Positions 8,593-26,845 of a stretch of 64,000 nucleotides of DNA are shown one piece after another (position 1 is the first letter of the stretch; every line of letters begins with the position of its first letter). Under the pieces are notes generated by a model. The model searched no databases. It saw only the letters and a list, made by a program, of their open reading frames with translations, and had not been told where the DNA came from. This DNA comes from Candidatus Hodarchaeota archaeon (GTDB lineage Archaea; Asgardarchaeota; Heimdallarchaeia; Hodarchaeales; Hodarchaeaceae). The translations under genes and the position numbers were made by a program. Location: contig JAEOTC010000121.1 in the NCBI GenBank assembly GCA_016840035.1, positions 1 through 64,000 on the forward strand, read 5' to 3'.

Positions 8593-9438
8593 TTAAGCAA
8601 AGATTAATCCCGAGAATACTAGCCAAGCTAGTGCAGATTTTGCAACTAAGCTAAGTATAATATATCCTCTTTCACCAAACAGGTAATCTTTCCATGGGCC
8701 AACCTTTTTATATTGCAGAAACATGTTCACTGCAAAGCTATTGAAGAAGAGGAAGTACATAACTATAGCGATATAGACGAACGTTGGAATTGCTTGGCCT
8801 ACATCTAGATCAAAACTGGTAAAGGTTGCAACAATCACTATCCAAGGCATAATGCCTGCAATCCAGCCAAGCCAGTAAGGTAACCAGTCTGTTTTTTCGG
8901 TATATTGATTAATTTTTTCCATCAGTAATCCATATGTATTCATTAAGAAATTTAACACGAATACAAGAGCAATGACCCAGAAGTCTAATATACCAAAAGC
9001 AAGTGAGATGAAAATAATCATCACTGAAGAGCTAAAAGCATATTCCCACCATCGAATTGGATTCATCCTTTTTTGTAAGTTAGAAATATATGAATTATTT
9101 AGTGGATAAGCAATCAAGAAGTGGGCTATTGCTGACATTAATAAGAAGCTAGCTAATAAGATTCCTGCGATATTTTCAAATGGGAAGAGTACTTCAGGTA
9201 CAGGACGAAATATTGGTTTGGTACCAGTAAGGACATCTACTTCTAATTTTGAGATGTAGATATCAACCGAAAAATTCCGGATTTGGTCAATGAACAAACT
9301 TAGTCCGAAAATCAAAACTGCTTGAACTAAGTGTAAAACTGCCATAACTGTGTTGAACTTTTTCAAATAGGCAGCACTTATCGAGGATGTTTCCCCGTTA
9401 TCAAATTTAAATTCACTCATTTTCATCATACCTTGCAA
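8593..9438 (-). CDS. heR: Heliorhodopsin
   Basis: AVLHLVQ, SAIAH, NPIRWWEYAFSSSVM, retinal-binding LSLVAKSALAW; true start probably a few codons in. Confidence 0.95.
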   Translation of the reverse strand: MQGMMKMSEFKFDNGETSSISAAYLKKFNTVMAVLHLVQAVLIFGLSLFIDQIRNFSVDIYISKLEVDVLTGTKPIFRPVPEVLFPFENIAGILLASFLLMSAIAHFLIAYPLNNSYISNLQKRMNPIRWWEYAFSSSVMIIFISLAFGILDFWVIALVFVLNFLMNTYGLLMEKINQYTEKTDWLPYWLGWIAGIMPWIVIVATFTSFDLDVGQAIPTFVYIAIVMYFLFFNSFAVNMFLQYKKVGPWKDYLFGERGYIILSLVAKSALAWLVFSGLIFA

Positions 9439-10002: not shown

Positions 10003-13000
10003 CTAGCTTTTTCGTCTGATGAAAATTACAGAGATAGATAGTAGAATTAAACTCCAGAGCTCAAAACCAGGTGAAACTGAAGTAGTGGTTGGTTCTGTGG
10101 TTGCAGATTCATCAGTAGTGGTAACAGTAGTAGTTGTTACTACCGTTGGCTCATTAACAGTAATGGAAACAGTAGCTGATCCATAATTTCCTGTTTGATC
10201 AAAGACGTTAATGCGAATAGTATGAGCTCCAGCACCAAGAGAGGCAAGAAATGAAGTGTCATTTACATTTATTCCTGGTATAAATACTGAATCTATATAC
10301 AGTTCAATAAGTTCAAGACCTGCTAGGTCACCTTGAGCCGGGTCAGAAGCACTCCATGTAATGGTCAGATCGTATTCGGTATCGCCTTCTTCTATAGTAA
10401 AGATTTCCTCATTTGTGGGACTTGTTATCTCTACAATAGGATTAGTAATATCAACTTCAAAGCCAATACCTGGACCTACAGCGGTTAAAGTTGCAAATTG
10501 CATTAGTAACACGGAATAGGAATCTAGAATTTCATCTTGATTTCTTCCCTCTGGAACAAGCATATCAACAACATTTGGATCATAGATAGAATCATCACCG
10601 CCTCCAAATTTCCATTCTTGAGGTTGAGAATAAAATTCCCGAAACGCTGAATAATCTTGACTACCTACGACAACGGTATAAGCCCAATCTTCTGTGGGGA
10701 TATCAACCACACTACGAGGTGCTTTTATGACGATGATCTTATCAACAGCATCAGAGAAAGATTCCATACCTTGGGTTTGAGTTCCATTTTCCCAAAGAAT
10801 ATATCGGTTAAATCCGTCTGATCGAACCAAAACTTCCCAGGCATTCTCGGAACCAATTGTAAAATGACCATTCTGATCGCAAAGTGTTGAACCTACTCCA
10901 GGTATCCGATTTTTATCGATATAGACTTGCATTAACGGATGACTGTATCCTACTGGGGAATTCCAGACATTTTCCAATTCTTTAAACTTGAATTCAAAAA
11001 TTGTCCATTCTGCATCATAACCAACACGAAATCTTAGTATATCCATAAATCCTTGACGATCAAGATCTCCTTCAGGATGCATCTGAGGATTAGTTGGATA
11101 AATTCCACGTTCATCTCCTTCTGGGTCATCAATTGAAAAAATTTCAGTCATTGTTACGCCTCCAAACGGAATGGTTAATCTCCATGGACCATCTTGGGGC
11201 ATGACATCAACATTCCTACTGTTAATTGTTCCCACAACTGAAAGAAACAGAGTATCTCCTTTTTCGGCATTCAAGGTGGTTAGTGGGATACTAAATTCAA
11301 TAAAGTCAGCAGCTGCAATATTTGTCTCAGTTGAGACATGTTTTTCCCACTGTTTTGATGTATTCACCTTATAGATATCGATCTTGCTTAGATCGGAAAA
11401 CTCTATTCGTAATTCTGTAGATAGCTCAATTCCAAGAATTTCACTTGAATCGGAGTGATTCGCGTAGCGAGGAAAGATGACTGAGTCATTCGCATTCGAA
11501 TCATAGAAATAGAGTCCGATAGAAACAGAACTGTTTCCTACAAGTGAAGCAAGTGAGAAACCGGGTGCAAGATCAATACGGAAGTGAACAGCTTCAAGAT
11601 CTTCATCAACAGCTGCATATAATTCTCCTAGAATGTCTACTTTGTCGTCCACTTTGCCAGAATCATTATAAAATGCTGAAAGATCCCATTCAGCTCCAAT
11701 TTTCTGACCATCTATTATAGGTAATTCTTTTCCTTTGAATACTCCTCCAATAGATGGTTTCATCTGTAAGAATAGACTAGGATACATATCAAGAATTTCT
11801 TGATCTGTCCAATTGATTCCTTTATATACTGCCCTTAAATTCAGTTTAAAAGCCCAATCGAAAAGCTCATCATGACCAGAATCACGATCAGAACCATACC
11901 ACCAGAACCAATCCGATCCTTCGGCAGCATAAAGGGCTTCCCAAGCATCAGTTACGTTTTCTGTAGGGTGTGCAGCCTCATAAGCAACTAAAGTTTCACG
12001 AGCAGTAATTAAACGATCCCATCCAAGATTTTCATCATCTTCACCAATCCAAACAGTTAAATCATTCGCCCAACTACCAGTTTTCATGGGAATTTCATCA
12101 AGTGTACTTACTGGATGTTCGTTCAGGTATTGAGAGGGAGTTATGGTGCGAAGCCAACCTGCATCTTGGGCAGCTTCAAGTTTCTCGTACAAACTCTCAC
12201 GGAACAAATTACCCGTATATTCAGTATCACCATCACCGTCTAAGTCATATTGGTAATTTTCCCAAGCATTCTCACCATCTAAAGCTACAGTAAAAACAGG
12301 GTCTTCAGTACCATTCCAGTCATTTAAAATGTCCTGAAGAGTATCTACAAAGTTTATTGCTGCAGTGTCTGGGATCAGCCCACCATAATTGAAACCTACT
12401 TCATCTGATAATTGTTGGTGACGGAAAAAAACAGCAACTGACTTATTTTCCTCTGTAACCCGATAAGGTTTGAACCATTGTTCAGGTGTTAATGAAGATA
12501 CAGATAATGATTTCTGAAGGATTGTATAATCAGTGGCAATCCAAGAAATCCCACTTTCATTTACCAGAGGTACTACTGCGGGACTTACAGCCATTTCCGA
12601 AGGCCACATACCGTTGGGATATTCACCGAAGTGCTCATACGTGAAATTGCGACCTTTTTGAATTTGAATTAATGCATCGTCACTCCAATTCGTTTCTCCT
12701 GAAGGAAGAGGAAGATTAGCATTTCCTGGATCGGTTTCTTGAGCTGACGTCAGGTTTACAAGAAGTGGAAGAATAGGGTGATAAAAAGGTGTCGTCATAA
12801 TTTCAAGACGTCCTTCATTCTGTAAAGAATCATGATAGGGGAGAGTATCCTGAATAATTGAGTAAGCATAGTTGAGGAGATTGGTTTTATCTGTTTTAGA
12901 ATAATGATTTCCTGCGATATCATTTTCTAGTGTTATATTTGCCACAACATTCATGTCAAGAGTTGTATAGCGTGGATTTATCCAATGTGCTAAAAATAAG

Positions 13001-13575
13001 ACTTTTAAGTCAAGAAATTCTTGATTTGTGAACGCATTGACTTGTTCACTTAGAGTTGGATACAAATTTCTTTTCTCTGATAATTCATGATATCGGGTAC
13101 CATTTTGTCGAAATTGAGAATTAATGTCGAAAAAATACTGCATAATTACAGATTTATTCTCATAACTCATATCTTCCTCATCCATCGCAAGAATTTCTAA
13201 ACGACGGTCATATGCAACTCCATTTACATAATCATCCAGCTGCTTAAGTAAACTCGGAGTTAGATTTATTGAAACATTTATATCTGGATAATCATTGAGC
13301 ACATCAGCCATATACGGATAGCTGTTTATTCCATGCATAAATACCCATGGTTGTTCATAGATATTTGTTTCTGGATCCTGATATGATGGTTGATGCTGAT
13401 GCCAGATAATAACTAGGTTCATAATTGGATCAGCTGCTGTTTTTGAGGTTTCTTCAATTTTCAAATTACCCTGACCGCTAACCAGCTGTAATGCTGGTCC
13501 AATAATTAACCCTCCAACTAGAACTATTACAATAGTGTATTTGATCACATTTTTCTTTATCATAAAGTCACTCAT
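10003..13575 (-). CDS. Surface-anchored GH57 amylopullulanase with glucodextranase-type DOMON domains
   Basis: WHQHQP, HPILPL, WPSEMAVS nucleophile, ALDGENAWE acid/base, AEGSDWFWW; DPEGDE DOMON, Ig-like domain, Thr linker, SPGFE-TM-RRKS. Confidence 0.9.
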   Translation of the reverse strand: MSDFMIKKNVIKYTIVIVLVGGLIIGPALQLVSGQGNLKIEETSKTAADPIMNLVIIWHQHQPSYQDPETNIYEQPWVFMHGINSYPYMADVLNDYPDINVSINLTPSLLKQLDDYVNGVAYDRRLEILAMDEEDMSYENKSVIMQYFFDINSQFRQNGTRYHELSEKRNLYPTLSEQVNAFTNQEFLDLKVLFLAHWINPRYTTLDMNVVANITLENDIAGNHYSKTDKTNLLNYAYSIIQDTLPYHDSLQNEGRLEIMTTPFYHPILPLLVNLTSAQETDPGNANLPLPSGETNWSDDALIQIQKGRNFTYEHFGEYPNGMWPSEMAVSPAVVPLVNESGISWIATDYTILQKSLSVSSLTPEQWFKPYRVTEENKSVAVFFRHQQLSDEVGFNYGGLIPDTAAINFVDTLQDILNDWNGTEDPVFTVALDGENAWENYQYDLDGDGDTEYTGNLFRESLYEKLEAAQDAGWLRTITPSQYLNEHPVSTLDEIPMKTGSWANDLTVWIGEDDENLGWDRLITARETLVAYEAAHPTENVTDAWEALYAAEGSDWFWWYGSDRDSGHDELFDWAFKLNLRAVYKGINWTDQEILDMYPSLFLQMKPSIGGVFKGKELPIIDGQKIGAEWDLSAFYNDSGKVDDKVDILGELYAAVDEDLEAVHFRIDLAPGFSLASLVGNSSVSIGLYFYDSNANDSVIFPRYANHSDSSEILGIELSTELRIEFSDLSKIDIYKVNTSKQWEKHVSTETNIAAADFIEFSIPLTTLNAEKGDTLFLSVVGTINSRNVDVMPQDGPWRLTIPFGGVTMTEIFSIDDPEGDERGIYPTNPQMHPEGDLDRQGFMDILRFRVGYDAEWTIFEFKFKELENVWNSPVGYSHPLMQVYIDKNRIPGVGSTLCDQNGHFTIGSENAWEVLVRSDGFNRYILWENGTQTQGMESFSDAVDKIIVIKAPRSVVDIPTEDWAYTVVVGSQDYSAFREFYSQPQEWKFGGGDDSIYDPNVVDMLVPEGRNQDEILDSYSVLLMQFATLTAVGPGIGFEVDITNPIVEITSPTNEEIFTIEEGDTEYDLTITWSASDPAQGDLAGLELIELYIDSVFIPGINVNDTSFLASLGAGAHTIRINVFDQTGNYGSATVSITVNEPTVVTTTTVTTTDESATTEPTTTSVSPGFELWSLILLSISVIFIRRKS

Positions 13576-13745
13576 CCACTCTAATATAATGTATCTTAAG
13601 AAACGAGTTCAATTACTGTTCCATAAAAAATATTACTTGGATAATCGCGAAATTCCGACCCCTATGTGCTATACATTTTCTTCGAACAGGAACACAAAAA
13701 AAACATCTAGTGAAGAGGTTTCTATTTAGAAACGGTGATTCTTAT

Positions 13746-15212
13746 ATGTTTAAGATCAAAATTTTTCTTATTCTGCTATTTTTTTCTACCTTTATTTTAA
13801 TTTTTCCAGTAAAAGGAGAAACAAACGCAGTTAATATAGATTTCTGGTATATTGAACCAGATGTAACTGATGATACACTTTTAACCCTAGTAGAGGATTT
13901 TGAAACGAGTGCTGGAGTAGAAGTGTCAGTAACTCGTCTACCCATAGATATTGCTAAGGAAGAATTCAAAACAGCTTCATTGAATGGCTCTGCACCTGAT
14001 TTAATACAGGGATATGCTACTTGGATTCCAGAATTGGTTACTAACGGTTTGATTTCTGCTATAGATGAAACTGATCTAGTAACCGATTTCACGTTGGAAT
14101 CTCTTAGAGCTGTTTCGTATTTTGAAATCGTTAATGATATCATTAATCCTAATAATATACTATCTTATGGATACCCTCAGCGAGTCGATACTCAAGCTTT
14201 CCTGTATTCTAAATCTATAGCAACCTCAATGGGGGCTACTATTCCTGAAATTGATCAAAATTGGGATGTTCTAACTTTTAAATCTGCAATTACTAAATTA
14301 AATGATCAAAGTGATCCAGGAAACAAAAAATATGGTTTTTCATTTACAGATTTACCAGCAGGGGCTGACCCACTATTTCATGGGAATAACGGAATTAAGT
14401 TTCTTGATTTCTCAGTAGATAAAGCTCATATTGCGATTGAATCAAATTCATCAGTTGATGCTCTTCAATTTCTATACGATGTTGTTCAAACAAATCGTTT
14501 AACTCCTGATTATGCTGATCAAGGTACTGCAAACACATTCTCTCATTTTGCTGAACTAGGAGATGTTGCATCGACTTTTGGGTTCGCTGCTGATATTAAG
14601 AATTATTTAACTGGTTCTCAATTCTCAGATCCGACTAATCTTGGTATTGCTCCCGTTCCTATGAACTCCGGAGCTACAGGAGCTCCTCTTCAAGTCATAG
14701 CTTTGATGTTAAGTGATTCCTCTACATTAGATGAGAAAGCAACAGCTAAGGACCTCGCAAAAACGCTAACAAGTGAAGAAGCAATGGTGAAGAATGCGAA
14801 GGATGAATATTTATTACCATCAAGCTTGGGAGTCTACGATCATGTCGATCTGACTTCTAACTCTGTTATACAAAGTTTTAAGATCCTCTTGGAAAATGCA
14901 CGGGAGTTACCGATATCTAAATACTGGGACTCGACTCAAGAGGATTATTCTATTGAAATTGGTGAAATGCTTAACGGAGATCAGAACGGAGCTACTGCAG
15001 CTATAGCAATACGCATTCGTTGGAGCTTTGCTCTTCCTACATCAGCGGGTATCCCTCCTATTCTACCGTTCGAAGAAGAAACGACAATTCCTACTACAAC
15101 TACTGAAACAACTACAGGTGAGACAACCGAGACAACTCAAGATACTTCAAGACTAGAACTTTTCATTGTTTTAATTGGGATTTGTGGTGTCTTATTATTA
15201 AAGAAAAGGTGA
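13746..15212 (+). CDS. Extracellular sugar-binding protein (maltodextrin-like), C-terminally anchored
   Basis: Signal peptide, IDFWY, APDLIQ, YGYP, NLGIAPVP; Thr linker-TM-KKR. The ATG at 13746 is preferred over the GTG at 13710. Confidence 0.8.
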   Translation: MFKIKIFLILLFFSTFILIFPVKGETNAVNIDFWYIEPDVTDDTLLTLVEDFETSAGVEVSVTRLPIDIAKEEFKTASLNGSAPDLIQGYATWIPELVTNGLISAIDETDLVTDFTLESLRAVSYFEIVNDIINPNNILSYGYPQRVDTQAFLYSKSIATSMGATIPEIDQNWDVLTFKSAITKLNDQSDPGNKKYGFSFTDLPAGADPLFHGNNGIKFLDFSVDKAHIAIESNSSVDALQFLYDVVQTNRLTPDYADQGTANTFSHFAELGDVASTFGFAADIKNYLTGSQFSDPTNLGIAPVPMNSGATGAPLQVIALMLSDSSTLDEKATAKDLAKTLTSEEAMVKNAKDEYLLPSSLGVYDHVDLTSNSVIQSFKILLENARELPISKYWDSTQEDYSIEIGEMLNGDQNGATAAIAIRIRWSFALPTSAGIPPILPFEEETTIPTTTTETTTGETTETTQDTSRLELFIVLIGICGVLLLKKR

Positions 15213-15216
15213 GAAC

Positions 15217-16722
15217 ATGAAAAATAAAAAAATATTTACACTGAGTGTACTAGTATCAATATTTCTAATGACTTTCATACCAATAAACGTTAAGGCTAAA
15301 TCACAGGATACGAACATAACCTTCTGGTACACAGAAAATGATTCTGAGAAACCAGGAGTACTAGCTTTAATAGATCAGTTTAATACCGAAAATCCTGATA
15401 TCAATGTTGAAGCACTACAGAAAGGATTCTTTGATGCACGAGCTCTTTATACTAATGCGTTCATTGCAGCGAATGAACCAGAAGTATTTCGAGCAGCACG
15501 CGATTGGGTTCCCGAATTCGCAGTCGCTGGGATGATTGCTCCTTTAACTGCGGAATATACGACTGAAGATTTAAATGATTTCTTACCCAGCGCGATCCGA
15601 CTCGTATCTTATCCAGACTCCGATGGAGTAAATCAAATTTGGGGTTTTCCACACCTTATTGATACTCCAGGATTGATGTATAATAAGGAAATAATGAATA
15701 ATGCAGGGATTGATGTCTCAGCTTTGAATATCAATACATCATGGACATGGGATGAATTCATTGGAAATGCTAGCCTTGTTGTAGATAATACAGCTGCCTA
15801 TGGTTATACTATTGCAGGTATGTTTTTCGGGGCCCAAGCAATTTTCTTTGGGCGAGGAGCACGTCTCTTTAATGATGGAATCCTAGATATTAATCATATT
15901 GCAATCAATTCTACAGAATCTCGTTCTGCATTAACTTTTCTAAAGAATATGATTGAAGTTGAGCAAATCACCCCAGTCTGGGAAGAAATGGGATGGGAAA
16001 CAATCAATGTACTCTTCGCTGACGATGGTGAGGTTGCTATGATTCAACAAGGACCTTGGGAATTAAAAAATTTCTTGGATAATTCTCCTGAATTCAATCC
16101 AACAGTTGATGGAGCCAAACCTTATGCGTCGGCTGATAATTTAGGAATCATGCAACTTCCCCACGATGAATTTGGAAATCAAGGTGCTCCACTTGGAGGA
16201 CATGCATATGTACTTTCAGCATTTGCTTCTGGTGATGAATATGACGCAGCAGTAAAACTCGCCAAGTTCTTATCAGGAGAAGATGCCATGGCTGCGGGTG
16301 CGATCGATTATTATCACGTACCTGGAAGAGAAAGTGTTATGGAACGATCTGATGTGAAAGCTTCTGCAGGATATGAGTATGTCCTTGGGTTCAAGAAGAA
16401 TGTAGACAAAGCCTACCAAGTTCCTGTTGATCATCGTTGGGCTAGAATTGAGCAAGAATTTGCCGATAATATTGATGAGTACTTAGCTGATGATATCTCA
16501 TTAGATGAATGTATAGCTCAAACTATCTCAATTTGGAAAGAAATTCTTGGCCAAGATGTTGTGGATGTTACCACCACAACTGAGACTGATGGAACTCAAC
16601 CTAGCACTACTACAAAACCTCCACAAACCGAATTAACTGAAGAAACTCCTGGATATAGTTTTACACTTATTTTTTTGAGTTTTCCAGTTCTTATCTGGAT
16701 TGTGAAAAAGCTTAGAACTTAG
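15217..16722 (+). CDS. Extracellular maltose/maltodextrin-binding protein, C-terminally anchored
   Basis: ITFWY, WGFP, GLMYNKE, WTWDEF, AMIQQGPW, PLGGH; TPGYS-TM-KKLR. Confidence 0.87.
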   Translation: MKNKKIFTLSVLVSIFLMTFIPINVKAKSQDTNITFWYTENDSEKPGVLALIDQFNTENPDINVEALQKGFFDARALYTNAFIAANEPEVFRAARDWVPEFAVAGMIAPLTAEYTTEDLNDFLPSAIRLVSYPDSDGVNQIWGFPHLIDTPGLMYNKEIMNNAGIDVSALNINTSWTWDEFIGNASLVVDNTAAYGYTIAGMFFGAQAIFFGRGARLFNDGILDINHIAINSTESRSALTFLKNMIEVEQITPVWEEMGWETINVLFADDGEVAMIQQGPWELKNFLDNSPEFNPTVDGAKPYASADNLGIMQLPHDEFGNQGAPLGGHAYVLSAFASGDEYDAAVKLAKFLSGEDAMAAGAIDYYHVPGRESVMERSDVKASAGYEYVLGFKKNVDKAYQVPVDHRWARIEQEFADNIDEYLADDISLDECIAQTISIWKEILGQDVVDVTTTTETDGTQPSTTTKPPQTELTEETPGYSFTLIFLSFPVLIWIVKKLRT

Positions 16723-16749: not shown

Positions 16750-18288
16750 ATGACTAAAGAAGTAAGTGAATCAATGGAGTTTAGCCCTCAAACGAAGATG
16801 TCACGTAAGCTTCGTGACCTTATCACTGCCTACGGATTCCTTCTACCTGCTTTCGTTGCGATTTCTCTCTTTGTTTTTGTACCACTCTTTTTTTCCTTTA
16901 TCATGTCGATTTTTAGAAATCCTACAGTTGTAGAACTGCGATTTGGGGTTGAATTCTATACCAATTTTTCGAATCTGTGGTGGAGAAATATTCGTGATTT
17001 CTTTACTGCAACTGCTGGGGATGACATAGGAATCCTAAAAGATGATGGTATTTATCTAATTATCAACTTAGTTGTTTTAATAGGGTTTGCTGTCGTTTTC
17101 TACAGGAAAACAAAGACCATATTACTCAACAAGTATCCTGAATTGCCTAAATTCGCCATTTTAAGTGTTAGCATTCCTCTTACAGTAATAATTACTCCTA
17201 TTATCTTGCAGTTATTCGTTACAATTCTCACATTTATTCCTGCGTTTATTAAACTACCAATTGAAGGCTATCGGGTTGTCTTGACCTCATCGGAAATTGA
17301 ATTTTTCAAAATCTTGTTCAACACTGTATTTTGGACTGCAACGTGTGTCTTCCTACATGTCCTACTCGGTATGCTACTAGCAATCCTTATGAATCGTGGA
17401 GGAAGTTCTGCACAGAGTTTATTCCGAGGAATCTTTATTCTACCATGGGCAATCCCAAGTTTTGTTTCAGCCCTTGTATGGCGATATTTCATATTTAATC
17501 GCCGTCAAGGGATATTAGGGCAGATCACTGCAAATGAAAGAGGAGCCAATTCATTCATAGTTACAGTAGCAGACCTTATAGGTGTCGTTATCGGGATAGG
17601 TGTAATTATTATCCTTTTCTTGGTAATTCAGCAACTTTTAACAGAACGAATGCCAAAAGAATCGATCTCAAAATATCTATTTCTTTACGGAATTCTGATA
17701 GTACTGTTTTTTGTTGGATTTGAGACTATTCAGATATCGAGTGGTATCCTGAATACATTTAAGTTTCTTGGATATAAAATTCTCGATATACCAGAAATAA
17801 ATTCAACGTTTTGGATAACAGATAAACTATTTTTATTTGGTATTGAATTTAGAATGATTACTTTTTCAGCAATACTCACCAACGTGTGGTTAGGAGTACC
17901 ATTTATGATGGTGTCATTCCTCGCAGCGCTTCAAAGTATTCCACAAGATCTATATGAAGCTGCAGACATAGATGGGGCTGGAACTTGGAATAAATTTCGA
18001 GATATCACTCTCCCCTTATTAAAGCCAACGTTAATGACTGTAAGTTTACTTGGAGTTATCTGGACATTTAATTTGTTTAATATCTTCTATATTCTGGCTG
18101 ATAATCAAAATGGTCTTGGTGATAGGGTGAACTATGACATATTTGTCACATTTATTTATGAACAATTCAATCGATTCAATTATAATGCGGCCGCAGGCCT
18201 AAGCTTCACAGTTTTCATAATGCTTGTCTCATTCAGCTTGGTGTACCGTAAATTAATGAGAGCTGAGGCACTATTCGAAGGAGAATAA
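16750..18288 (+). CDS. Carbohydrate ABC permease, MalF-like, with extra TM insertions
   Basis: AYGFLLPA, ILPWAIP, WLGVPFMM, EAA loop LYEAADIDGA. Confidence 0.9.
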   Translation: MTKEVSESMEFSPQTKMSRKLRDLITAYGFLLPAFVAISLFVFVPLFFSFIMSIFRNPTVVELRFGVEFYTNFSNLWWRNIRDFFTATAGDDIGILKDDGIYLIINLVVLIGFAVVFYRKTKTILLNKYPELPKFAILSVSIPLTVIITPIILQLFVTILTFIPAFIKLPIEGYRVVLTSSEIEFFKILFNTVFWTATCVFLHVLLGMLLAILMNRGGSSAQSLFRGIFILPWAIPSFVSALVWRYFIFNRRQGILGQITANERGANSFIVTVADLIGVVIGIGVIIILFLVIQQLLTERMPKESISKYLFLYGILIVLFFVGFETIQISSGILNTFKFLGYKILDIPEINSTFWITDKLFLFGIEFRMITFSAILTNVWLGVPFMMVSFLAALQSIPQDLYEAADIDGAGTWNKFRDITLPLLKPTLMTVSLLGVIWTFNLFNIFYILADNQNGLGDRVNYDIFVTFIYEQFNRFNYNAAAGLSFTVFIMLVSFSLVYRKLMRAEALFEGE

Positions 18289-18292
18289 AAAG

Positions 18293-19777
18293 ATGGCAGG
18301 ATTAAGATCATTCAAATCTGTTGAAAGACCCCGAATCTCATTCATTCATTTGGCATTTCTTTCACATATAATTAGCACGATTATTGCACTTTGGGGGTTT
18401 TGGGCCATTGAAACAATCTTATGGAATCGAATTGCTTATTCTAACGGGGAATGGGTAAATTCCCTCCCACTTTATCTGAATTCTACTTTAGCTCAAGTTG
18501 AGGAATTACTCCTTTCAAATTCTATCCTTTTTACAACTGGAATTCTCATTATTTTTCTCATATCATCACTCATGTTTCTAAGATATTCACGAGAAAGAAT
18601 AAATTGGAATCCTACAACTCGCTTATTATTCAGAATTCAGCTATTAGTTGTATTTATCTGTTCTTTAATGGGTTTCTGGCTATACATGTCTGTACTGACG
18701 ATTTCCGACCTACGTAGTATCGGTGAGGGGCAGAGTGGGGCAGAGTGGCTTCGTACTGATATACGAAATTATTCAGATTTCTTTTTCTTTTTTGGGTTAT
18801 TAATTAATTTAATTTTTGCATTCTTTATAGTCGCTACTCTAATAATTTTATTTCTGAATAGAGAGCGAGAGGAAACACGATTCAAACAAAGATTCAGTTT
18901 ATATCAATTTATCCTAAACTCAATAAAGCGATTACCATTTTATTTAGTGATTTCTGGGTATCTCTTATTAACCTTAATTCCTGTCCTTATGACTATTCTT
19001 GTGTCATTTTCAACAACAGCTGATCTTCGTATGCATCGATTACCAAGCATTCCTCTGGAAGCATTTATCAAAAACTTTTCCTCTGTGGTATTTGCTGTAA
19101 GTGCGAATGAATTAGGGTTTGCTGCAGCCTTTTTATATAGTATAATTCTGGGTTTCGGAACAGGACTTTTAGGTCTTGCAGTTTCCTTATCTGCAGGTTA
19201 TGCTTTAGCTCGCTTTAAATTTGCTGGAAATAAAATACTTACCTTCATGATCCTTGCGACTCAAATGTTTCCAGGTTTAATTCTTCTCATTCCTCAATAC
19301 GTAATTTGGACGGACATGGGATTATTAAGAGAAGGGACATTACTCTTTGGTGTCCTATTAGCATATATTTCGGGAGCAGTTGCATACTGCACATGGATGA
19401 TGAAAGGATATTTTGAAACTATTCCTTTGGATTTAGAAGAAGCGGCATTAATTGATGGAGCTGGACGCTTAGGTACTTTTACTAGAATTGCTGTACCTTT
19501 AGCCAAACCTGGTATGGTCGCTGTATTAATCTTTACATTCTTGACTGCTTGGTCAGAATTTGTACTAGCAAGGACATTTATCGGAGAATCCAATCCAATT
19601 CTTATCACGCTCCCTCTGTTATTTTATAATTATCAAAATCCAGGAGCTCCAGAGAATCCAATATTTTTTGAACTTTTAGCGCCGTATGCGATTCTAGTGG
19701 CCCTCCCTCCTGTGTTGTTATTCTTATTCTTACAAAAAGAACTTGCTGCTGGAGCAGTAGCTGGTGCAGTTAAATAA
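18293..19777 (+). CDS. Carbohydrate ABC permease, MalG-like, with N-terminal TM extension
   Basis: AGYALARF, TQMFP, KGYFETIP, LEEAALIDGA, C-terminal GAVK. Confidence 0.9.
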   Translation: MAGLRSFKSVERPRISFIHLAFLSHIISTIIALWGFWAIETILWNRIAYSNGEWVNSLPLYLNSTLAQVEELLLSNSILFTTGILIIFLISSLMFLRYSRERINWNPTTRLLFRIQLLVVFICSLMGFWLYMSVLTISDLRSIGEGQSGAEWLRTDIRNYSDFFFFFGLLINLIFAFFIVATLIILFLNREREETRFKQRFSLYQFILNSIKRLPFYLVISGYLLLTLIPVLMTILVSFSTTADLRMHRLPSIPLEAFIKNFSSVVFAVSANELGFAAAFLYSIILGFGTGLLGLAVSLSAGYALARFKFAGNKILTFMILATQMFPGLILLIPQYVIWTDMGLLREGTLLFGVLLAYISGAVAYCTWMMKGYFETIPLDLEEAALIDGAGRLGTFTRIAVPLAKPGMVAVLIFTFLTAWSEFVLARTFIGESNPILITLPLLFYNYQNPGAPENPIFFELLAPYAILVALPPVLLFLFLQKELAAGAVAGAVK

Positions 19778-19789
19778 AGGTGAACAAAA

Positions 19790-21142
19790 TTGACTTCTGT
19801 AACATTTAATAATGTATCCAAGTATTATGGGAATTTTGCTGCAGTAGATGATCTTAATCTAACTGTAGAAGATCAGGAATTTCTTGTTCTTGTTGGACCT
19901 AGTGGTTGTGGAAAGACAACATCTCTTCGAATGCTAGCTGGACTTGAAGATATTAGTACTGGTACAATTCAGATTGGGGAAAGAATTGTTAATGATGAAC
20001 CTCCTAAAGCCCGAGATATCGCGATGGTGTTTCAATCTTATGCGTTATACCCCCACTGGACAATTTATGACAATTTAGCTTTTGGTTTACGAATGAGGAA
20101 TGTGAGTTTTTCGCAAAATTTTCTTGTATTCCTCTTACAAGCTATCCTTTATTCCATCGCTCTTGGAATTTTTTATGCTTTTTCGTACGTTATTGAGTTT
20201 CTATTACCTGATGTTGGTGCATTATTATTCATTTCTGGATTGATTGGAGGTATTGTTACCTTGATAATGTTCGCTGAGGTTAGGCATGATATTCGACGAT
20301 TCATTCTCAATTTGAAATTACTTCCAGCGTTAGCGAGCATGGCTGAGATAGAAAATGAAATTGAAATGAAAGTTAAAGAAACCTCAACACTTTTAGGGAT
20401 ACGTGAACAGCTGTTCAAGAAACCAAAACAATTAAGTGGTGGCCAGCGACAAAGAGTGGCTCTTGGCAGAGCGATCATTCGCTCACCCGAAGTATTTCTC
20501 ATGGATGAACCTTTAAGTAATTTAGATGCTAAGTTACGGGTACAGATGCGTGCTGAACTCCAAAGAATGCAAAAGAGATTGAAAACTACCACAATTTATG
20601 TAACACACGATCAAATAGAGGCTATGACCTTAGCTGATAGGATTGCCATAATGAATGAAGGAGTTCTTCAGCAAGTGGGAACACCTGATGAAGTTTATAC
20701 TACTCCTGTTAACAAGTTTGTAGCAGGGTTCATTGGAAGCCCATCAATGAATTTCAGTGAGGGTAAGATTATCGTGGATCAAGGAGAACTTTTCTTCGAG
20801 TCGGGATCATTCAAATATCCTGTCCCTTCGCAGTATCGGGAAATATTACGAGAGGTCTTTGCCGGAAAATTAGTATGGCTAGGAATCAGACCAGAACATA
20901 TTCAATTGACTGAGTATAGCGCCTCGAGGCAAGTAATGGCATCCGTTGGAGTATTAGAACCTATTGGCTCTGATACATATGTGTATATAGATTTTCCTAA
21001 AGAGGAATCCATGATTGTGAAAGTAGAAGGTATTGCAGGTTTTAAGCTCGATGAAGAACTCGATGTAAAATTCTTACCCGAGCATTTGCATTTCTTCAAT
21101 TATGAGACAGGTCATCGAATTAACCCAGAAGAAGCGGAATAA
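19790..21142 (+). CDS. malK: MalK-type ABC ATPase with an internal hydrophobic hairpin
   Basis: GPSGCGKT, VFQSYALYPH, LSGGQRQR, LMDEPLSNLD, YVTHDQ, C-terminal TOBE (GIRPEH). Confidence 0.9.
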   Translation: MTSVTFNNVSKYYGNFAAVDDLNLTVEDQEFLVLVGPSGCGKTTSLRMLAGLEDISTGTIQIGERIVNDEPPKARDIAMVFQSYALYPHWTIYDNLAFGLRMRNVSFSQNFLVFLLQAILYSIALGIFYAFSYVIEFLLPDVGALLFISGLIGGIVTLIMFAEVRHDIRRFILNLKLLPALASMAEIENEIEMKVKETSTLLGIREQLFKKPKQLSGGQRQRVALGRAIIRSPEVFLMDEPLSNLDAKLRVQMRAELQRMQKRLKTTTIYVTHDQIEAMTLADRIAIMNEGVLQQVGTPDEVYTTPVNKFVAGFIGSPSMNFSEGKIIVDQGELFFESGSFKYPVPSQYREILREVFAGKLVWLGIRPEHIQLTEYSASRQVMASVGVLEPIGSDTYVYIDFPKEESMIVKVEGIAGFKLDEELDVKFLPEHLHFFNYETGHRINPEEAE

Positions 21143-21403: not shown

Positions 21404-24073
21404 TTATCTTCTACGTCGAATATAGAGAGTTACAAAACCTAACATCGCTAGAATACTAAATAATGCGAACCCAGGTGTATCATCTTCGGTAGTTGTTGGT
21501 TCTGTGGTTGGTTCCGTTGTTGGAGCTTCTGTGGTAGTTGTTGTGGTGGTTGTAGTCTCCGTAGTTGTTGTCACCTCTTGGGGATGGATTGTAACTGTTA
21601 CTATTGCTGAACCATAGTTTCCTGTAAGGTCATACACATTGATCCGAATTGTATGCGCACCTTCACTTAGACTAAGTACTGTACTAGAGTCTGCTAGGCT
21701 AATACTAGGTTGTAATACACCATCTACAAAGAATTCAAGGTAATCAAGACCTGCTATAGTTGCATCTGCAGGATCCGAAACTGTCCAGTCAAATGTTACA
21801 TCGTATGTTGTGCCTGATACAATTGTGAATTCAGATGCATCTGCAGGTGCTGTAAATGCGGCAACAGGATCAGTTACGTCTTCGACAAAACTAATTCCTG
21901 GGCCAACAGCCATGACTGTGGTTCTAGTAGAAGTTGGGATATCATATCCATAGGTTATGTATTCCTGTAACCATGTTGAGTTTCCACCTTCTGGCACAAG
22001 AATGTCTACATAGTTAGGATCAATATCACCGTCTACACCGCCACCAAAGACATAAGCTTCAGGTGCAGCATTGTGTTGTCGGTAATTTGTATAATCATTA
22101 CTTCCTACCATGACAACATATTTCCAGCTTGTGTCAGCTGTACTTCCAATTAAGGAGGCTGGAACAGAGAAAGAGATCCAATAAGTATCAGTTGTATCAT
22201 TCAAGTCTGTATTAATAGATATACCAGTCCCTGATTGAACAACATTAGTAGAATCATTCCAATACCATTTTTCCCAACTTGTAACTTGGAATCCATGATC
22301 CCATTCAATATCAGTATTTACATAAGCATTTCCATAGCTGTCGGTGCTTCCACCTGGTGCATTATCCACCATTACCATAAATGTTGGATGCGAAAAGCCT
22401 GTTGGACCACTCCATGGATTACTATTATTATACATCTTAAAGTGGAATGTAGTTACCCACTCATTACTAGTAACCGTGAAATTAAGAAGATCTAAGAGCC
22501 CTTCGTAGGGGGCAAATGAGACATCAGTAGGATAAACACCGTATTCATCACCTTGAGGATCTGTCATAGAGAATACTTGTGATTCTGGAGGAGGCACAAG
22601 TACAAACAGAGATATATTTGCGGTAGTCACAGAATTGTTATTTGAGGCATTGATGTAGAAAGTTACATTTGTTGGATACATATAAGGACCAATGCTTACA
22701 TTAAATTTATCAGCTTGTGTACCAGCTTCTTCAAGGAAAGTGAAGTCTTTCGTATTCCATGTACCAGACATATTTGTCTCCCAATAGAGAGTAACAACTG
22801 TACCTGGTGGTTGATGAATGAAAGTTGTACCATTCAGAAGTTGGCCTACATTCGCTGTAATGTTGATTAATTGTCCTGGGAGGATAAATCCACCTGAAGG
22901 TTCAACTGCACTTATCTCTTCAATATCAACTGGGGGAAGGGGACCAATGGTCACGTTGTACTCGGCTGTTGGTCCATAACCAGTCTCAATCATCCAAGTA
23001 AGAGTATCATTTTCATCAAATCCGCCTGTATCCATTTCCAAGCGATACCAGTCATTATTACCTTCATAATCACCGACAACATGAGTCATTGATACATTCG
23101 TCCAAGAACTCCACATCATAGCACTATAATCATGATATTTTACCTTGAAAGTAGCCCAATCAGAGGCATTTGGGTGATCGTGGGAGCCGTACCAGACAGA
23201 TATTTTAAATTCCAATAGGAATCCTTTGGGCATAAGACCACCGAAGGAATTATCCGCTTCATTACCAGCCCAACCAATACCTGATGGTTCTGGAGTGAGC
23301 TCAGGGTTACTATCACCATCTGCATCAACTTCAATTAAAGCATAGTTTGAAACTTTCTCAGGAGCTGCACTGTTGAAACTATTTGGGATCAAATCAGCAG
23401 GTGAATCTCCACCACCACCACCAAACATGGCAGCTACAATGTGTATTTCAGCATTTGCGGGGATTCCAGCAGGATAAAATAGAGACCATGGAATAAATGC
23501 TTCATAATGGACTATTGATGAACCAGCGGCCGTGGAAACATTTCCAGTGCTGGCGTTATATCCAGAATCACCAGGAACATACGTGAATGTTGTTCCATCT
23601 TCCACAGTAAAATTCCTGAGGTCCCAAGGGGAGAGTCCCCAAGTTCCAAGAAACCAGTTTGTTTTAAAACCGTTTTCAAATACAGCATTTCTATTCCAAG
23701 CATCTGCTGTATTATGATCTGTAACTCCAGTTGCACCATTATCTGTGTCAAAGAATACCAAAAATCCATTTGAAGCGCCTTGTAACGATGCATTCAAACC
23801 AACAGCGAAACCTGTGGCATTTAATGAAGTATACAAATCATTCAAACCCCAAGCACCACCAGTACCCCAGGCTTCATCACCATAATGGTCTGTAGTGAGG
23901 GTTTTATTGCCATCAAACCAATCATTCCCTATCGATCCATCAATTAGCACATCGTTATGTGTTGATGCATCCGATAAAATTGTGGTTGGGATAGCAGCTA
24001 TATCTTTTGGGAGTACTACTAGCATTGAAACTGTAACAATGAGTAATACTACTCCAATTACTTTACCTTTCAT
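21404..24073 (-). CDS. Secreted surface protein with carbohydrate-binding DOMON/CBM9-like and Ig-like domains, PGF-type anchor
   Basis: Signal peptide; IDGSIGNDW; DPQGDEYG DOMON paralogous to the amylopullulanase C-terminus; Thr linker; TPGFA-TM-RRRR; no GH57 motifs. Confidence 0.75.
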   Translation of the reverse strand: MKGKVIGVVLLIVTVSMLVVLPKDIAAIPTTILSDASTHNDVLIDGSIGNDWFDGNKTLTTDHYGDEAWGTGGAWGLNDLYTSLNATGFAVGLNASLQGASNGFLVFFDTDNGATGVTDHNTADAWNRNAVFENGFKTNWFLGTWGLSPWDLRNFTVEDGTTFTYVPGDSGYNASTGNVSTAAGSSIVHYEAFIPWSLFYPAGIPANAEIHIVAAMFGGGGGDSPADLIPNSFNSAAPEKVSNYALIEVDADGDSNPELTPEPSGIGWAGNEADNSFGGLMPKGFLLEFKISVWYGSHDHPNASDWATFKVKYHDYSAMMWSSWTNVSMTHVVGDYEGNNDWYRLEMDTGGFDENDTLTWMIETGYGPTAEYNVTIGPLPPVDIEEISAVEPSGGFILPGQLINITANVGQLLNGTTFIHQPPGTVVTLYWETNMSGTWNTKDFTFLEEAGTQADKFNVSIGPYMYPTNVTFYINASNNNSVTTANISLFVLVPPPESQVFSMTDPQGDEYGVYPTDVSFAPYEGLLDLLNFTVTSNEWVTTFHFKMYNNSNPWSGPTGFSHPTFMVMVDNAPGGSTDSYGNAYVNTDIEWDHGFQVTSWEKWYWNDSTNVVQSGTGISINTDLNDTTDTYWISFSVPASLIGSTADTSWKYVVMVGSNDYTNYRQHNAAPEAYVFGGGVDGDIDPNYVDILVPEGGNSTWLQEYITYGYDIPTSTRTTVMAVGPGISFVEDVTDPVAAFTAPADASEFTIVSGTTYDVTFDWTVSDPADATIAGLDYLEFFVDGVLQPSISLADSSTVLSLSEGAHTIRINVYDLTGNYGSAIVTVTIHPQEVTTTTETTTTTTTTTEAPTTEPTTEPTTTEDDTPGFALFSILAMLGFVTLYIRRRR

Positions 24074-24589: not shown

Positions 24590-26845
24590 ATGAAGTCGAA
24601 TAGATATATTTTCGTATTAGTGCTTATTTTTTCTATAAATATCGTCATTAGTACATCTTTGGCAAATCCAGATGGTACAAATGCTTCCCAAAAATTGGAT
24701 CTTGTTTTTCTATTACATGCAAATCAAGCGAATGTACCTTATGGTGATGTTGCGAATGATTTATGCTATCATGGTGTTTTAGAAACTATGAGGAATCATC
24801 CTGATCTTCATTTTCCCTTACATTTTTCTGGGACTTTATTAACCGATTTAGCTTGGTTCAACACTTCTACGTTAGATTTATTAAGACAAGGCATTAATTC
24901 TGGTCAATTTGAAATGATAGGATCAACATATGCCCAAAATATCATTTATTCCCATCATGATGATTGGGATAATCAGATTCAGATTGTTAAACATCGTCAA
25001 GTTTTAGAGGAAATCTTAGGGATGGAACCAGTTGGATTCTGGAATCCAGAACGATGCTGGAATCAAGAGAGGTACGTTAAGCTAATCAGTGAAGGGGGTT
25101 ATTTGTATACATTTGTTGAAGATCATATTATAAATGAAGGACAACCATTCACTGGTGAGTATGATGAATACATTGTGAGAAATACATCGGTAGATTCTGA
25201 GAATTTGTTAATCGTAAATGATGATAAAACGATTCTACATCTAATAGATACCATTGCAGGTACTACAGAACCTCCTACATCACCTACTGTAATTTCAGCA
25301 GTAGATAACTTGATCTCCTATCTGGATCAAGTGTATCAGAATGACACAAATGATGATTACCTTGTATTTTACGGGCAAGATATGGAGGCATGGGGATTAT
25401 GGCAGGAAGAAGCTCAGACCGATGACCTACAAACAGTGGCAAGTAGACTAGATTATCTTTTCACTCGATTAGAAGAGGAATCCGATTGGTTAAATCTGTG
25501 TACACCAACTGAATTTATTTCAGACCTTCCTCCTGATTATACGTTTTCATATATACCATCCATACCAGATGGAAGCGCAGTGTGGATGCATAATCCTTCA
25601 GTAGATGCAGGTTACAATGATTGGTTTGACTTTTCTGAGAATGATTCACGATTAGATGATTATCGCTTCCAATTTGCTACCGCAAGAGATTATTTAAAAA
25701 ATGCAGAGGCGTGGCTATCTACATACTATTTTTCAGGGAATGAAATCCATAAGACAAGATTCAAAGCAGCGAGTAAATTACTAAGTTATGCCCATTTCGT
25801 CTTTGCTGCGAATCAGTACGAGTTTGGATGTATTAACTGTTTTTTTCCTTGGTTTTACCGTGCAAAAACAGCTATGATTACTGCACAGGCTGCAATATTT
25901 GCAATGACTGCAAATTCATCAACTATGGTCATACAGAAAGATCTTGACTTTGATAACAATATAGAATTTATTATATTTAATAATAGATCTATGTTTGTAT
26001 TTTCTGGACTTGGTGGACGGTTAATCAACTGGTATGATCTTTCTACAGGAGAAGTTTTATTAGCTAATGATCTCCCTAATACTTATGCCACTTGGTCTAT
26101 CAATGGATTAGATTACCCATCTGGAACTTACCTCTCTTCTCCAATTGAATTAGTTACAGGTGCAGATCTATGGGGACGGACTACAAATTCTTATCTTCTT
26201 AGGCCTAAAGCATTTTATGATACTTGGGGTGATTCTGAAGCTGAATGGATTTGGCAGTCTAGAAATCGAACAGTTATTACAGGAAAGGATTTCATTCAAT
26301 TTTATTTTGATTATTCAGATCGAATAGTTAGTAAAGTCTACTCCTTATCAGATGATTCAAATCAGCTCTCTATAACCTATTCAATCAATAATGGTGAATC
26401 TTACATAATAGAACCTAAAATTGGTTTAAGTTTAAGTCCTGGGAATGAGGATATTCTATATTCTGGTAAAGAATTTCTTGAAGAAAAAATAACTCAGAAT
26501 GGAACACACAATTTCCTCCATGTCAGTAATTCGAAGTCCCTTGTTGACATTACTCTAACGGTAGGAAACACTGTCAATATAAATCCTACAATTCAAGATC
26601 CCATGTTCGCCTTAGGCTATTCTATTGAGCTTCCCGCCATTGATCAACATTCTGAAAGCACTTATACCTTTCTCATTGAGGGGACCAAAAGAGAAGATAG
26701 TGAACCCTCACAAACATCAACTATCAGTAAATCTACTCAGAATACAACAACAGATACAGAAGTAGTGAATGCATCTTTCCCAGGAATATTATATATTCCA
26801 GCAATCTTAATAATATTGGTTATCCTCCAAAAAAGGAAAATCTAA
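24590..26845 (+). CDS. Secreted/anchored GH57 (alpha-amylase or 4-alpha-glucanotransferase-like)
   Basis: Signal peptide; LHANQ (CSR1 variant), LHFSGTL, GFWNPERCW, YGQDMEAWG; DLDFDNNIEF...GGRL beta-sandwich; FPG-TM-KRK. Confidence 0.8.
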   Translation: MKSNRYIFVLVLIFSINIVISTSLANPDGTNASQKLDLVFLLHANQANVPYGDVANDLCYHGVLETMRNHPDLHFPLHFSGTLLTDLAWFNTSTLDLLRQGINSGQFEMIGSTYAQNIIYSHHDDWDNQIQIVKHRQVLEEILGMEPVGFWNPERCWNQERYVKLISEGGYLYTFVEDHIINEGQPFTGEYDEYIVRNTSVDSENLLIVNDDKTILHLIDTIAGTTEPPTSPTVISAVDNLISYLDQVYQNDTNDDYLVFYGQDMEAWGLWQEEAQTDDLQTVASRLDYLFTRLEEESDWLNLCTPTEFISDLPPDYTFSYIPSIPDGSAVWMHNPSVDAGYNDWFDFSENDSRLDDYRFQFATARDYLKNAEAWLSTYYFSGNEIHKTRFKAASKLLSYAHFVFAANQYEFGCINCFFPWFYRAKTAMITAQAAIFAMTANSSTMVIQKDLDFDNNIEFIIFNNRSMFVFSGLGGRLINWYDLSTGEVLLANDLPNTYATWSINGLDYPSGTYLSSPIELVTGADLWGRTTNSYLLRPKAFYDTWGDSEAEWIWQSRNRTVITGKDFIQFYFDYSDRIVSKVYSLSDDSNQLSITYSINNGESYIIEPKIGLSLSPGNEDILYSGKEFLEEKITQNGTHNFLHVSNSKSLVDITLTVGNTVNINPTIQDPMFALGYSIELPAIDQHSESTYTFLIEGTKREDSEPSQTSTISKSTQNTTTDTEVVNASFPGILYIPAILIILVILQKRKI

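Follow-up and report, generated by a model that had tools for sequence, protein, structure and literature searches.

A predicted membrane hairpin inside the ATPase domain of a MalK-type ABC importer from a Heimdall-group Asgard archaeon

The stretch of DNA analysed here (64,000 nucleotides, hereafter the window) carries an operon in which two binding proteins, two BPD_transp_1 permeases and an ABC ATPase are encoded in this order, and the ATPase gene contains a large in-frame insert. The operon and the two genes flanking it are as follows.

10003-13575 (-): large surface protein with a Glucodextran_C domain, flanking the operon
13710..16722 (+): two tandem solute-binding protein genes (500 and 501 aa), operon head
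16750..18288 (+): MalF/SugA-like permease, 512 aa, longer than SugA (305 aa)
18293..19777 (+): MalG/SugB-like permease, 494 aa, whose residues 217-494 are a full-length SugB match
19790..21142 (+): MalK/MsmX-type ABC ATPase, insert-bearing, 450 aa, TTG start (P0001)
21404-24073 (-): large surface protein with a Glucodextran_C domain, flanking the operon

The gene order of the operon is the same in related loci, and four contigs carrying orthologues keep the succession of binding proteins, two long permeases, ATPase, Glucodextran_C protein and GH57. One of the two flanking Glucodextran_C proteins is fused to GH57, and both end in a Thr-rich stalk followed by a hydrophobic basic tail resembling PGF-CTERM; a further GH57 gene is located at 24590-26845. 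The location of the importer is best explained as a GH57 starch-utilisation locus. The MalG-like permease possesses an extra N-terminal region (residues 1-205, nt 18293-18907) with four hydrophobic segments. Such permease extensions are fast-evolving, and a word-based search with MalG-like residues 1-215 gave only two matches. A relative of the neighbouring permease, 73% identical, is labelled Candidatus Hodarchaeales in NCBI, and the genome, that of an Asgard archaeon, also encodes a eukaryote-type actin (440 bits) and two Snf7 genes.

The product of 19790-21142 is best explained as the ATPase of a CUT1-type (maltodextrin/oligosaccharide) type I ABC importer. A phmmer search against all PDB chains matched MalK, MsmX, SugC and archaeal sugar ATPases at E values of 1e-87 to 1e-104, and Foldseek against the PDB (6yir, 2it1, 2d62) gave E values of 1e-38 to 1e-40 with target-normalised TM scores of 0.85-0.90. 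The earlier note, made from the sequence alone, had described all catalytic motifs and the TOBE domain as intact, and every one of them was located: Walker A GPSGCGKT (36-43), Q82, LSGGQ (215-219), FLMDE with E240, SNLD, and H273, while OB_MalK (PF17912, E=1.2e-12, residues 316-371) and TOBE_2 (PF08402, E=1.8e-08, residues 364-436), which make up the C-terminal regulatory domain, both score above their curated cut-offs. Walker A, the Q-loop, the signature, the Walker B Glu, the D-loop and the H-loop are invariant in the family alignments. The start codon is TTG in the window gene and ATG at the same place in its orthologues. An insert-free MalK paralogue is present on another contig (C98) of the same genome.

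The ATPase thus has its motifs, OB/TOBE domain and fold in common with the CUT1 ATPases MalK, MsmX, SugC and UgpC (2d62, 6yir, 1g29, 2r6g, 7cad), and its operon, like those of MalK/MsmX-type importers, includes two EAA-type permeases and binding proteins. However, known MalK/MsmX members are soluble peripheral proteins with about 1-8 residues at one particular loop, whereas the window ATPase has 82 residues there, including two membrane-type helices. The chains matched by Foldseek (MsmX, MalK, SugC and related chains) are each about 80 residues shorter than the window ATPase, and the Pfam ABC_tran match is stretched across residues 20-242, although the profile has 137 positions. The parts of the protein are as follows.

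19790..20107 (+): N-terminal part of the nucleotide-binding domain (NBD), residues 1-106, aligning to PDB 2d62 residues 7-115
20108..20203 (+): insert helix 1, residues 107-138, predicted outward crossing (AF2 pLDDT 81-89; hydrophobic core 111-131)
20204..20212 (+): turn L-P-D, residues 139-141, predicted extracellular, the sole non-helical residues between the helices in the AF2 model
20213..20275 (+): insert helix 2, residues 142-162, predicted return crossing from hydrophobicity and alignments
20276..20317 (+): basic amphipathic helix, residues 163-176, predicted to lie on the cytoplasmic membrane face (AF2 helix 162-174)
20318..20353 (+): linker, residues 177-188, leading back to the normal helical-subdomain helix (AF2 helix 179-202)
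20354..20734 (+): remaining NBD, residues 189-315, with LSGGQ, Walker B and E240, D-loop and H273
20735..21139 (+): C-terminal regulatory domain (OB_MalK and TOBE_2, from Pfam)

The position of the insert was defined by the PDB alignments. All MalK/MsmX alignments break into query residues 4-106 and 189-440 while the target chain continues unbroken (in 2d62, residue 115 is followed by 117), so residues 107-188 constitute an 82-aa insertion. The interval of 20105-20350, with about 80 aa, proposed in the earlier note was therefore correct to within 3 nt of the one obtained with phmmer (20108-20353). Residues 1-106 hold Walker A, Q82 and the first helical-subdomain helix (AF2 92-104), ending in FGLRMRNVS. 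The numbering matches that of E. coli MalK up to residue 106 (Q82, F98-G99-L100), and the insert site corresponds to the loop at E. coli MalK 106-108, which is flanked on both sides by helical-subdomain helices. On the other side, AF2 helix 179-202 continues into the region that aligns with PDB homologues from residue 189. No solved homologue found by phmmer or Foldseek in the PDB covers residues 107-188.

The insert is singular within its own genome. Of the 46 ABC ATPase units recognised by their motifs, the product of 19790-21142 alone has a membrane-like stretch in the interval from Walker A to the signature, and its spacing of 179 between these two motifs is the widest (median 104). Insertions as a general habit of the ATPases of this genome were consequently rejected, with one of 46 units having such a segment.

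The membrane character of the insert was assessed by several scales. The Kyte-Doolittle 19-residue mean exceeds 1.6 across 110-139 and 142-164, with peaks of 2.18 (111-129) and 2.41 (144-162), in agreement with the two strongly hydrophobic segments noticed before. Hessa sums, which throughout this work are simple additions of scale values without position weighting, are -0.30 kcal/mol for the best 19-mer of helix 1 (111-129) and -1.85 kcal/mol for that of helix 2 (144-162), and at least +9.1 kcal/mol elsewhere in the protein. Mean Eisenberg hydrophobicity <H> is 0.81 and 0.85 for helices 1 and 2, and the hydrophobic moment is just 0.15; on these values the insert helices are assigned to the membrane-spanning class, not the surface class. 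The segment behind them (163-176) is of another kind, with a hydrophobic moment of 0.56 and four Lys/Arg, i.e., basic and amphipathic. Two 19-mers with Hessa sums of no more than 0 and <H> above 0.8 do not agree with a soluble peripheral subunit free of membrane segments, and the soluble or amphipathic bundle that would have spoken against the earlier reading was not what the scales returned.

The distribution of charge points in the same direction. Summed over 13 homologues, Lys/Arg number 34 in the N-flank, 46 in the C-flank and only 2 in the inter-helix turn, the pattern that the positive-inside rule would predict for a hairpin of in-out-in topology, as judged from these sequences. The insert thus has two apolar helices of about 20 or more residues, a short polar turn and basic flanks on the predicted cytoplasmic side.

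Structure prediction gave a hairpin in two members. In the AF2 model of the window ATPase (nine-sequence alignment, mean pLDDT 81), residues 107-138, 142-160, 162-174 and 179-202 are helical, and the insert has a pLDDT of 81-89. The protein from genome G068, which belongs to another family and is 46% identical, gave a better model (23-sequence alignment, mean pLDDT 90.3, pTM 0.81) with the corresponding helices at 107-139, 141-161, 163-177 and 182-205 (pLDDT 85-95). The proposal in the earlier note of an integral-membrane ATPase is supported, as a prediction, by the hydrophobicity, by the recurrence of the insert and by these two models, and we consider that the hairpin probably spans the membrane and makes the ATPase an integral membrane subunit.

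Two observations count against a spanning hairpin. Helix 2 is borderline in some distant members (+1 to +3 kcal/mol), and a hairpin splitting a cytosolic domain requires co-translational insertion in mid-chain, which is unusual. The insert might instead enter the inner leaflet only, as a monotopic or re-entrant element like that of caveolin or reticulon, or lie on the membrane surface, so that the ATPase would be attached to the membrane and would not cross it. The turn of just 3 residues and the marginal helix 2 of those distant members are in favour of such an arrangement, as is another ATPase subfamily of the same class, described below, in which the insert at the same loop is aromatic and basic and looks clearly interfacial. 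However, both helices contain at least 21 consecutive apolar residues with the low moment given above, the turn often contains Asp, Asn, Ser or Gly, residues that would be energetically unfavourable in the middle of the bilayer, and the helices in the AF2 models (32 and about 20-33 residues) are long enough to span it after a stalk. A monotopic or surface-lying insert is therefore regarded as unlikely.

The insert is not peculiar to this assembly, as had been allowed for in the earlier note. We found 13 sequences with the insert at the same site and of the same length, from independent metagenomes or genomes, distributed over three families that belong to a single Asgard class (Heimdall/Hodarchaeales-like). 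When residues 95-200 were used as query, a word-based search detected four orthologues of 447-456 aa in JGI, ENA and Logan assemblies, 53-86% identical in that region, and a profile run against 1.84 billion representatives clustered at 50% identity added only three further clusters aligned through the insert (P0006, P0007 and P0009). In the closest pairs, the dN/dS (Nei-Gojobori) of the insert is 0.109 (window versus P0002) and 0.064 (P0002 versus P0003), and that of the ATPase core is 0.015-0.026; synonymous sites are saturated in more distant pairs. The insert values of 0.06-0.11 indicate that the insert is translated and under purifying selection, although looser than that on the core.

These data bear on the question of whether the 246 bases are absent from the mature protein, as they would be if they were due to misassembly or represented an intron, an intein or the scar of a mobile element. 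In favour of this, the insert has a slightly lower GC content than the whole gene (35.4% vs 38.4%). However, the same in-frame insert occurs in independent JGI, ENA, Logan and NCBI assemblies, and its dN/dS shows that the protein sequence it encodes is under selection. A profile built from the 13 inserts was run against the six-frame ORFs of the whole genome and matched the gene itself but no second copy (next best E=0.12), so that neither a donor gene nor a repeated element was found. Inteins carry splicing-domain motifs, measure some 130 aa or more and are under no selection for a function in the host; the insert matches neither an intein nor any other Pfam family, and its 82 residues are too few. 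An artefact, intron or intein is thus effectively excluded.

Within the insert, helix 2 (SGLIGGI..L.MFAEVR) together with E163-x-R165 is the most conserved stretch, far above helix 1, and E163 and R165 are invariant in an eight-sequence alignment. In the insert helices apolar residues are replaced by other apolar residues while sequence identity is low, which is the pattern of helices that face lipid. Used by itself as query in an ESM Atlas feature search, the insert returned no usable match.

The distribution of the hairpin-bearing ATPase was surveyed in 83 genomes of the same class. In the genus of the window (g1), the membrane-type insert was found in the window genome only (1 of 22 species), while three of the four genomes of genus g6 (family f5) and two of the three genomes of genus g13 (family f7) possess it. 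With the queries used, the other 21 species representatives of g1 (G001-G021) yielded the insert-free paralogue only. Such a scattered occurrence may be due to loss, or to transfer between members of the class. In a quick IQ-TREE analysis with the insert excised, the 13 insert-bearing proteins all fell inside one 15-row cluster (SH-aLRT 87), within which the placement of two long-branch insert-free rows is not settled. A single origin of the insert is compatible with this tree of the remaining sequence, but not proven by it.

In most of these operons the permeases are enlarged as well. The long MalG form accompanies the hairpin ATPase in the window, in L023, L026, L011, L013, L015 and G067, and in the P0006 operon. 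The P0009 operon (L128:648-5185), on the other hand, encodes the most divergent hairpin ATPase (460 aa) together with ordinary permeases of 302 and 280 aa. Since these permeases are of ordinary size, the hairpin is independent of the extra permease helices and separable from them, and strict co-evolution of the hairpin with enlarged permeases was rejected on the same grounds.

The enlarged permeases are also relevant to the idea that the hairpin lies outside the lipid, buried in a protein interface, for example between the ATPase and cytoplasmic loops of the enlarged permeases or between the two ATPase subunits. Most operons with the insert do encode permeases with about 200 extra residues, which favours this idea, but the one operon with permeases of normal size speaks against it. 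Moreover, about fifty nearly uninterrupted apolar residues without a polar face are a poor fit to a soluble interface, the charges follow the positive-inside rule, and the pattern of substitution is that of helices facing lipid. A buried interface is accordingly very unlikely, and a hairpin placed in the membrane remains the preferred reading.

The same loop has received additions in other ATPases. A review describes the helical subdomain as the region of ABC ATPases that varies most and as their contact for the EAA loops of the permeases (PMC6906923). Among the best 150 matches, about 30 MalK-like proteins have inserts of 27-187 residues at the identical point, all charged and coiled-coil-like, and no membrane-like segment was found in these. 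Examples of the charged inserts, from metagenomes, are P0011, P0035, P0043, P0048, P0067, P0075, P0127, P0132 and P0153, which recall the coiled-coil hairpin of Rad50/SMC heads. Cyanobacterial (L028-L030) and other bacterial MalKs have basic inserts of 15-46 residues in the same loop; a contig scan with the family alignment, which relies on the most conserved ATPase motifs only, detected 80 ordinary bacterial MalK loci, among them some with short hydrophilic inserts at this point, and an ESM Atlas fold search returned ordinary MalK clusters and two cyanobacterial clusters with short inserts. In those loci for which hydrophilic inserts were scored, the best 19-mers sum to +10 to +15 kcal/mol. 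The occurrence of large inserts directly after the FGL(K/R)xR helix in many MalKs indicates that the loop tolerates large additions.

The ATPase subfamily with the aromatic insert is a distant one, found in five family f3 genomes of the same class (loci L113, L114, L119, L124 and L125 in genomes G024, G042, G058, G059 and G050). It has about 80 inserted residues with a high content of Trp, Phe, Lys and Arg, the best 19-mers give +6 to +11 kcal/mol, and the subfamily groups far from the MalK-like clade. From its composition, this insert looks interfacial rather than membrane-spanning. The membrane-type insert at the MalK loop is restricted to the small clade described above.

Compared with known systems, the hydrophilic-insert MalKs (P0011, P0035, P0048, P0067, L028-L030) share the insertion point with the window ATPase, but their inserts, of 15-187 residues, are charged and coiled-coil-like or basic, unlike the membrane-type insert of the window. 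In Rad50 and SMC proteins, the ATPase head likewise sends out an antiparallel helical hairpin, which is placed between the lobe with the Q-loop and the signature motif. Pfam SMC_N gave a weak, sub-threshold match to the window ATPase; the likeness is architectural only, for the Rad50/SMC hairpins are hydrophilic coiled coils of hundreds of residues that act on DNA and are not membrane elements. Fused ABC half-transporters, like the window ATPase, combine the ATPase and membrane helices in one polypeptide. However, their membrane domain is complete, comprises at least four helices and precedes or follows an uninterrupted ATPase domain, whereas in the window ATPase only two hydrophobic helices are present, as a hairpin that interrupts the ATPase domain itself (106/189), and the translocation pathway is provided by separate permeases.

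On the basis of these results, an architecture can be proposed in which the variable loop of the helical subdomain has taken up a module of 82 residues. Helix 107-138 would run outward through the membrane, the 3-residue turn would be exposed outside, and helix 142-162 would return, giving an in-out-in topology; the basic amphipathic helix 163-176 would then lie on the cytoplasmic face of the membrane and lead back to the normal fold. With the ATPase as an integral membrane protein, each importer, having two ATPase subunits, would gain four membrane helices. The two hairpins may flank the permease pair on its outside, one on each side, and there could lock the ATPase permanently onto its own transporter and buttress the latter. 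Because the base of the hairpin belongs to the subdomain that turns when ATP binds, the hairpin would move with this subdomain and might, in addition to the EAA coupling helices, provide a second mechanical connection with the membrane part. The presumed orientation of the hairpin towards the membrane relies on MalK K106C, which reportedly cross-links to the EAA loops. The roles of anchor and buttress are what we infer from this arrangement, and the buttress is weakened by the ordinary permeases of P0009.

A functional variant of this arrangement treats the hairpin as a membrane docking or sensing element through which a membrane partner, for example a light-sensing heliorhodopsin, or the state of the lipid would regulate the ATPase. 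A heliorhodopsin gene (PF18761, E=4e-83) is located at 8593-9438 (-), 10 kb upstream of the ATPase gene. The greater conservation of helix 2 and the E-x-R motif relative to helix 1 is what would be expected of a contact surface, the subdomain from which the hairpin arises turns in the course of the ATP cycle (PMC6906923), and modulation of an ABC exporter by a heliorhodopsin is on record (PMC11109279). However, that published case concerns an unrelated multidrug exporter, and the heliorhodopsin gene of the window is on the strand opposite to the operon with a 3.6-kb gene between them. Docking or sensing by a specific partner or by lipid is considered quite unlikely.

Literature searches on a membrane hairpin in an ABC ATPase domain, on the MalK K106C cross-links and on Hodarchaeales ABC transporters found nothing on this feature, and the layout was found in none of the solved structures in the PDB or the papers searched. 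In prokaryotic ABC importers, the ATPase is soluble and held on the permeases only via the EAA coupling helices, and a conserved membrane hairpin emerging from the rotating subdomain would break this rule. We tentatively suggest, as a possibility still open to considerable doubt, that the hairpin is a working part of the machine, i.e., a second force-transmitting or gating link or a sensor of lipid or a partner, more than a passive anchor, and that it represents a previously undescribed ABC-importer architecture that arose in Heimdall-group Asgard archaea. The practical value of the finding is modest. The family has few members and does not extend beyond a single archaeal class. The hairpin offers a natural test case for how much freedom the helical subdomain needs, for the importance of ATPase exchange or dissociation, and for the recruitment of peripheral helices. 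The variable loop of MalK-type ATPases thus emerges as an evolutionary docking point, onto which coiled coils, basic segments, interfacial aromatic segments and, as predicted here, membrane helices have been grafted.
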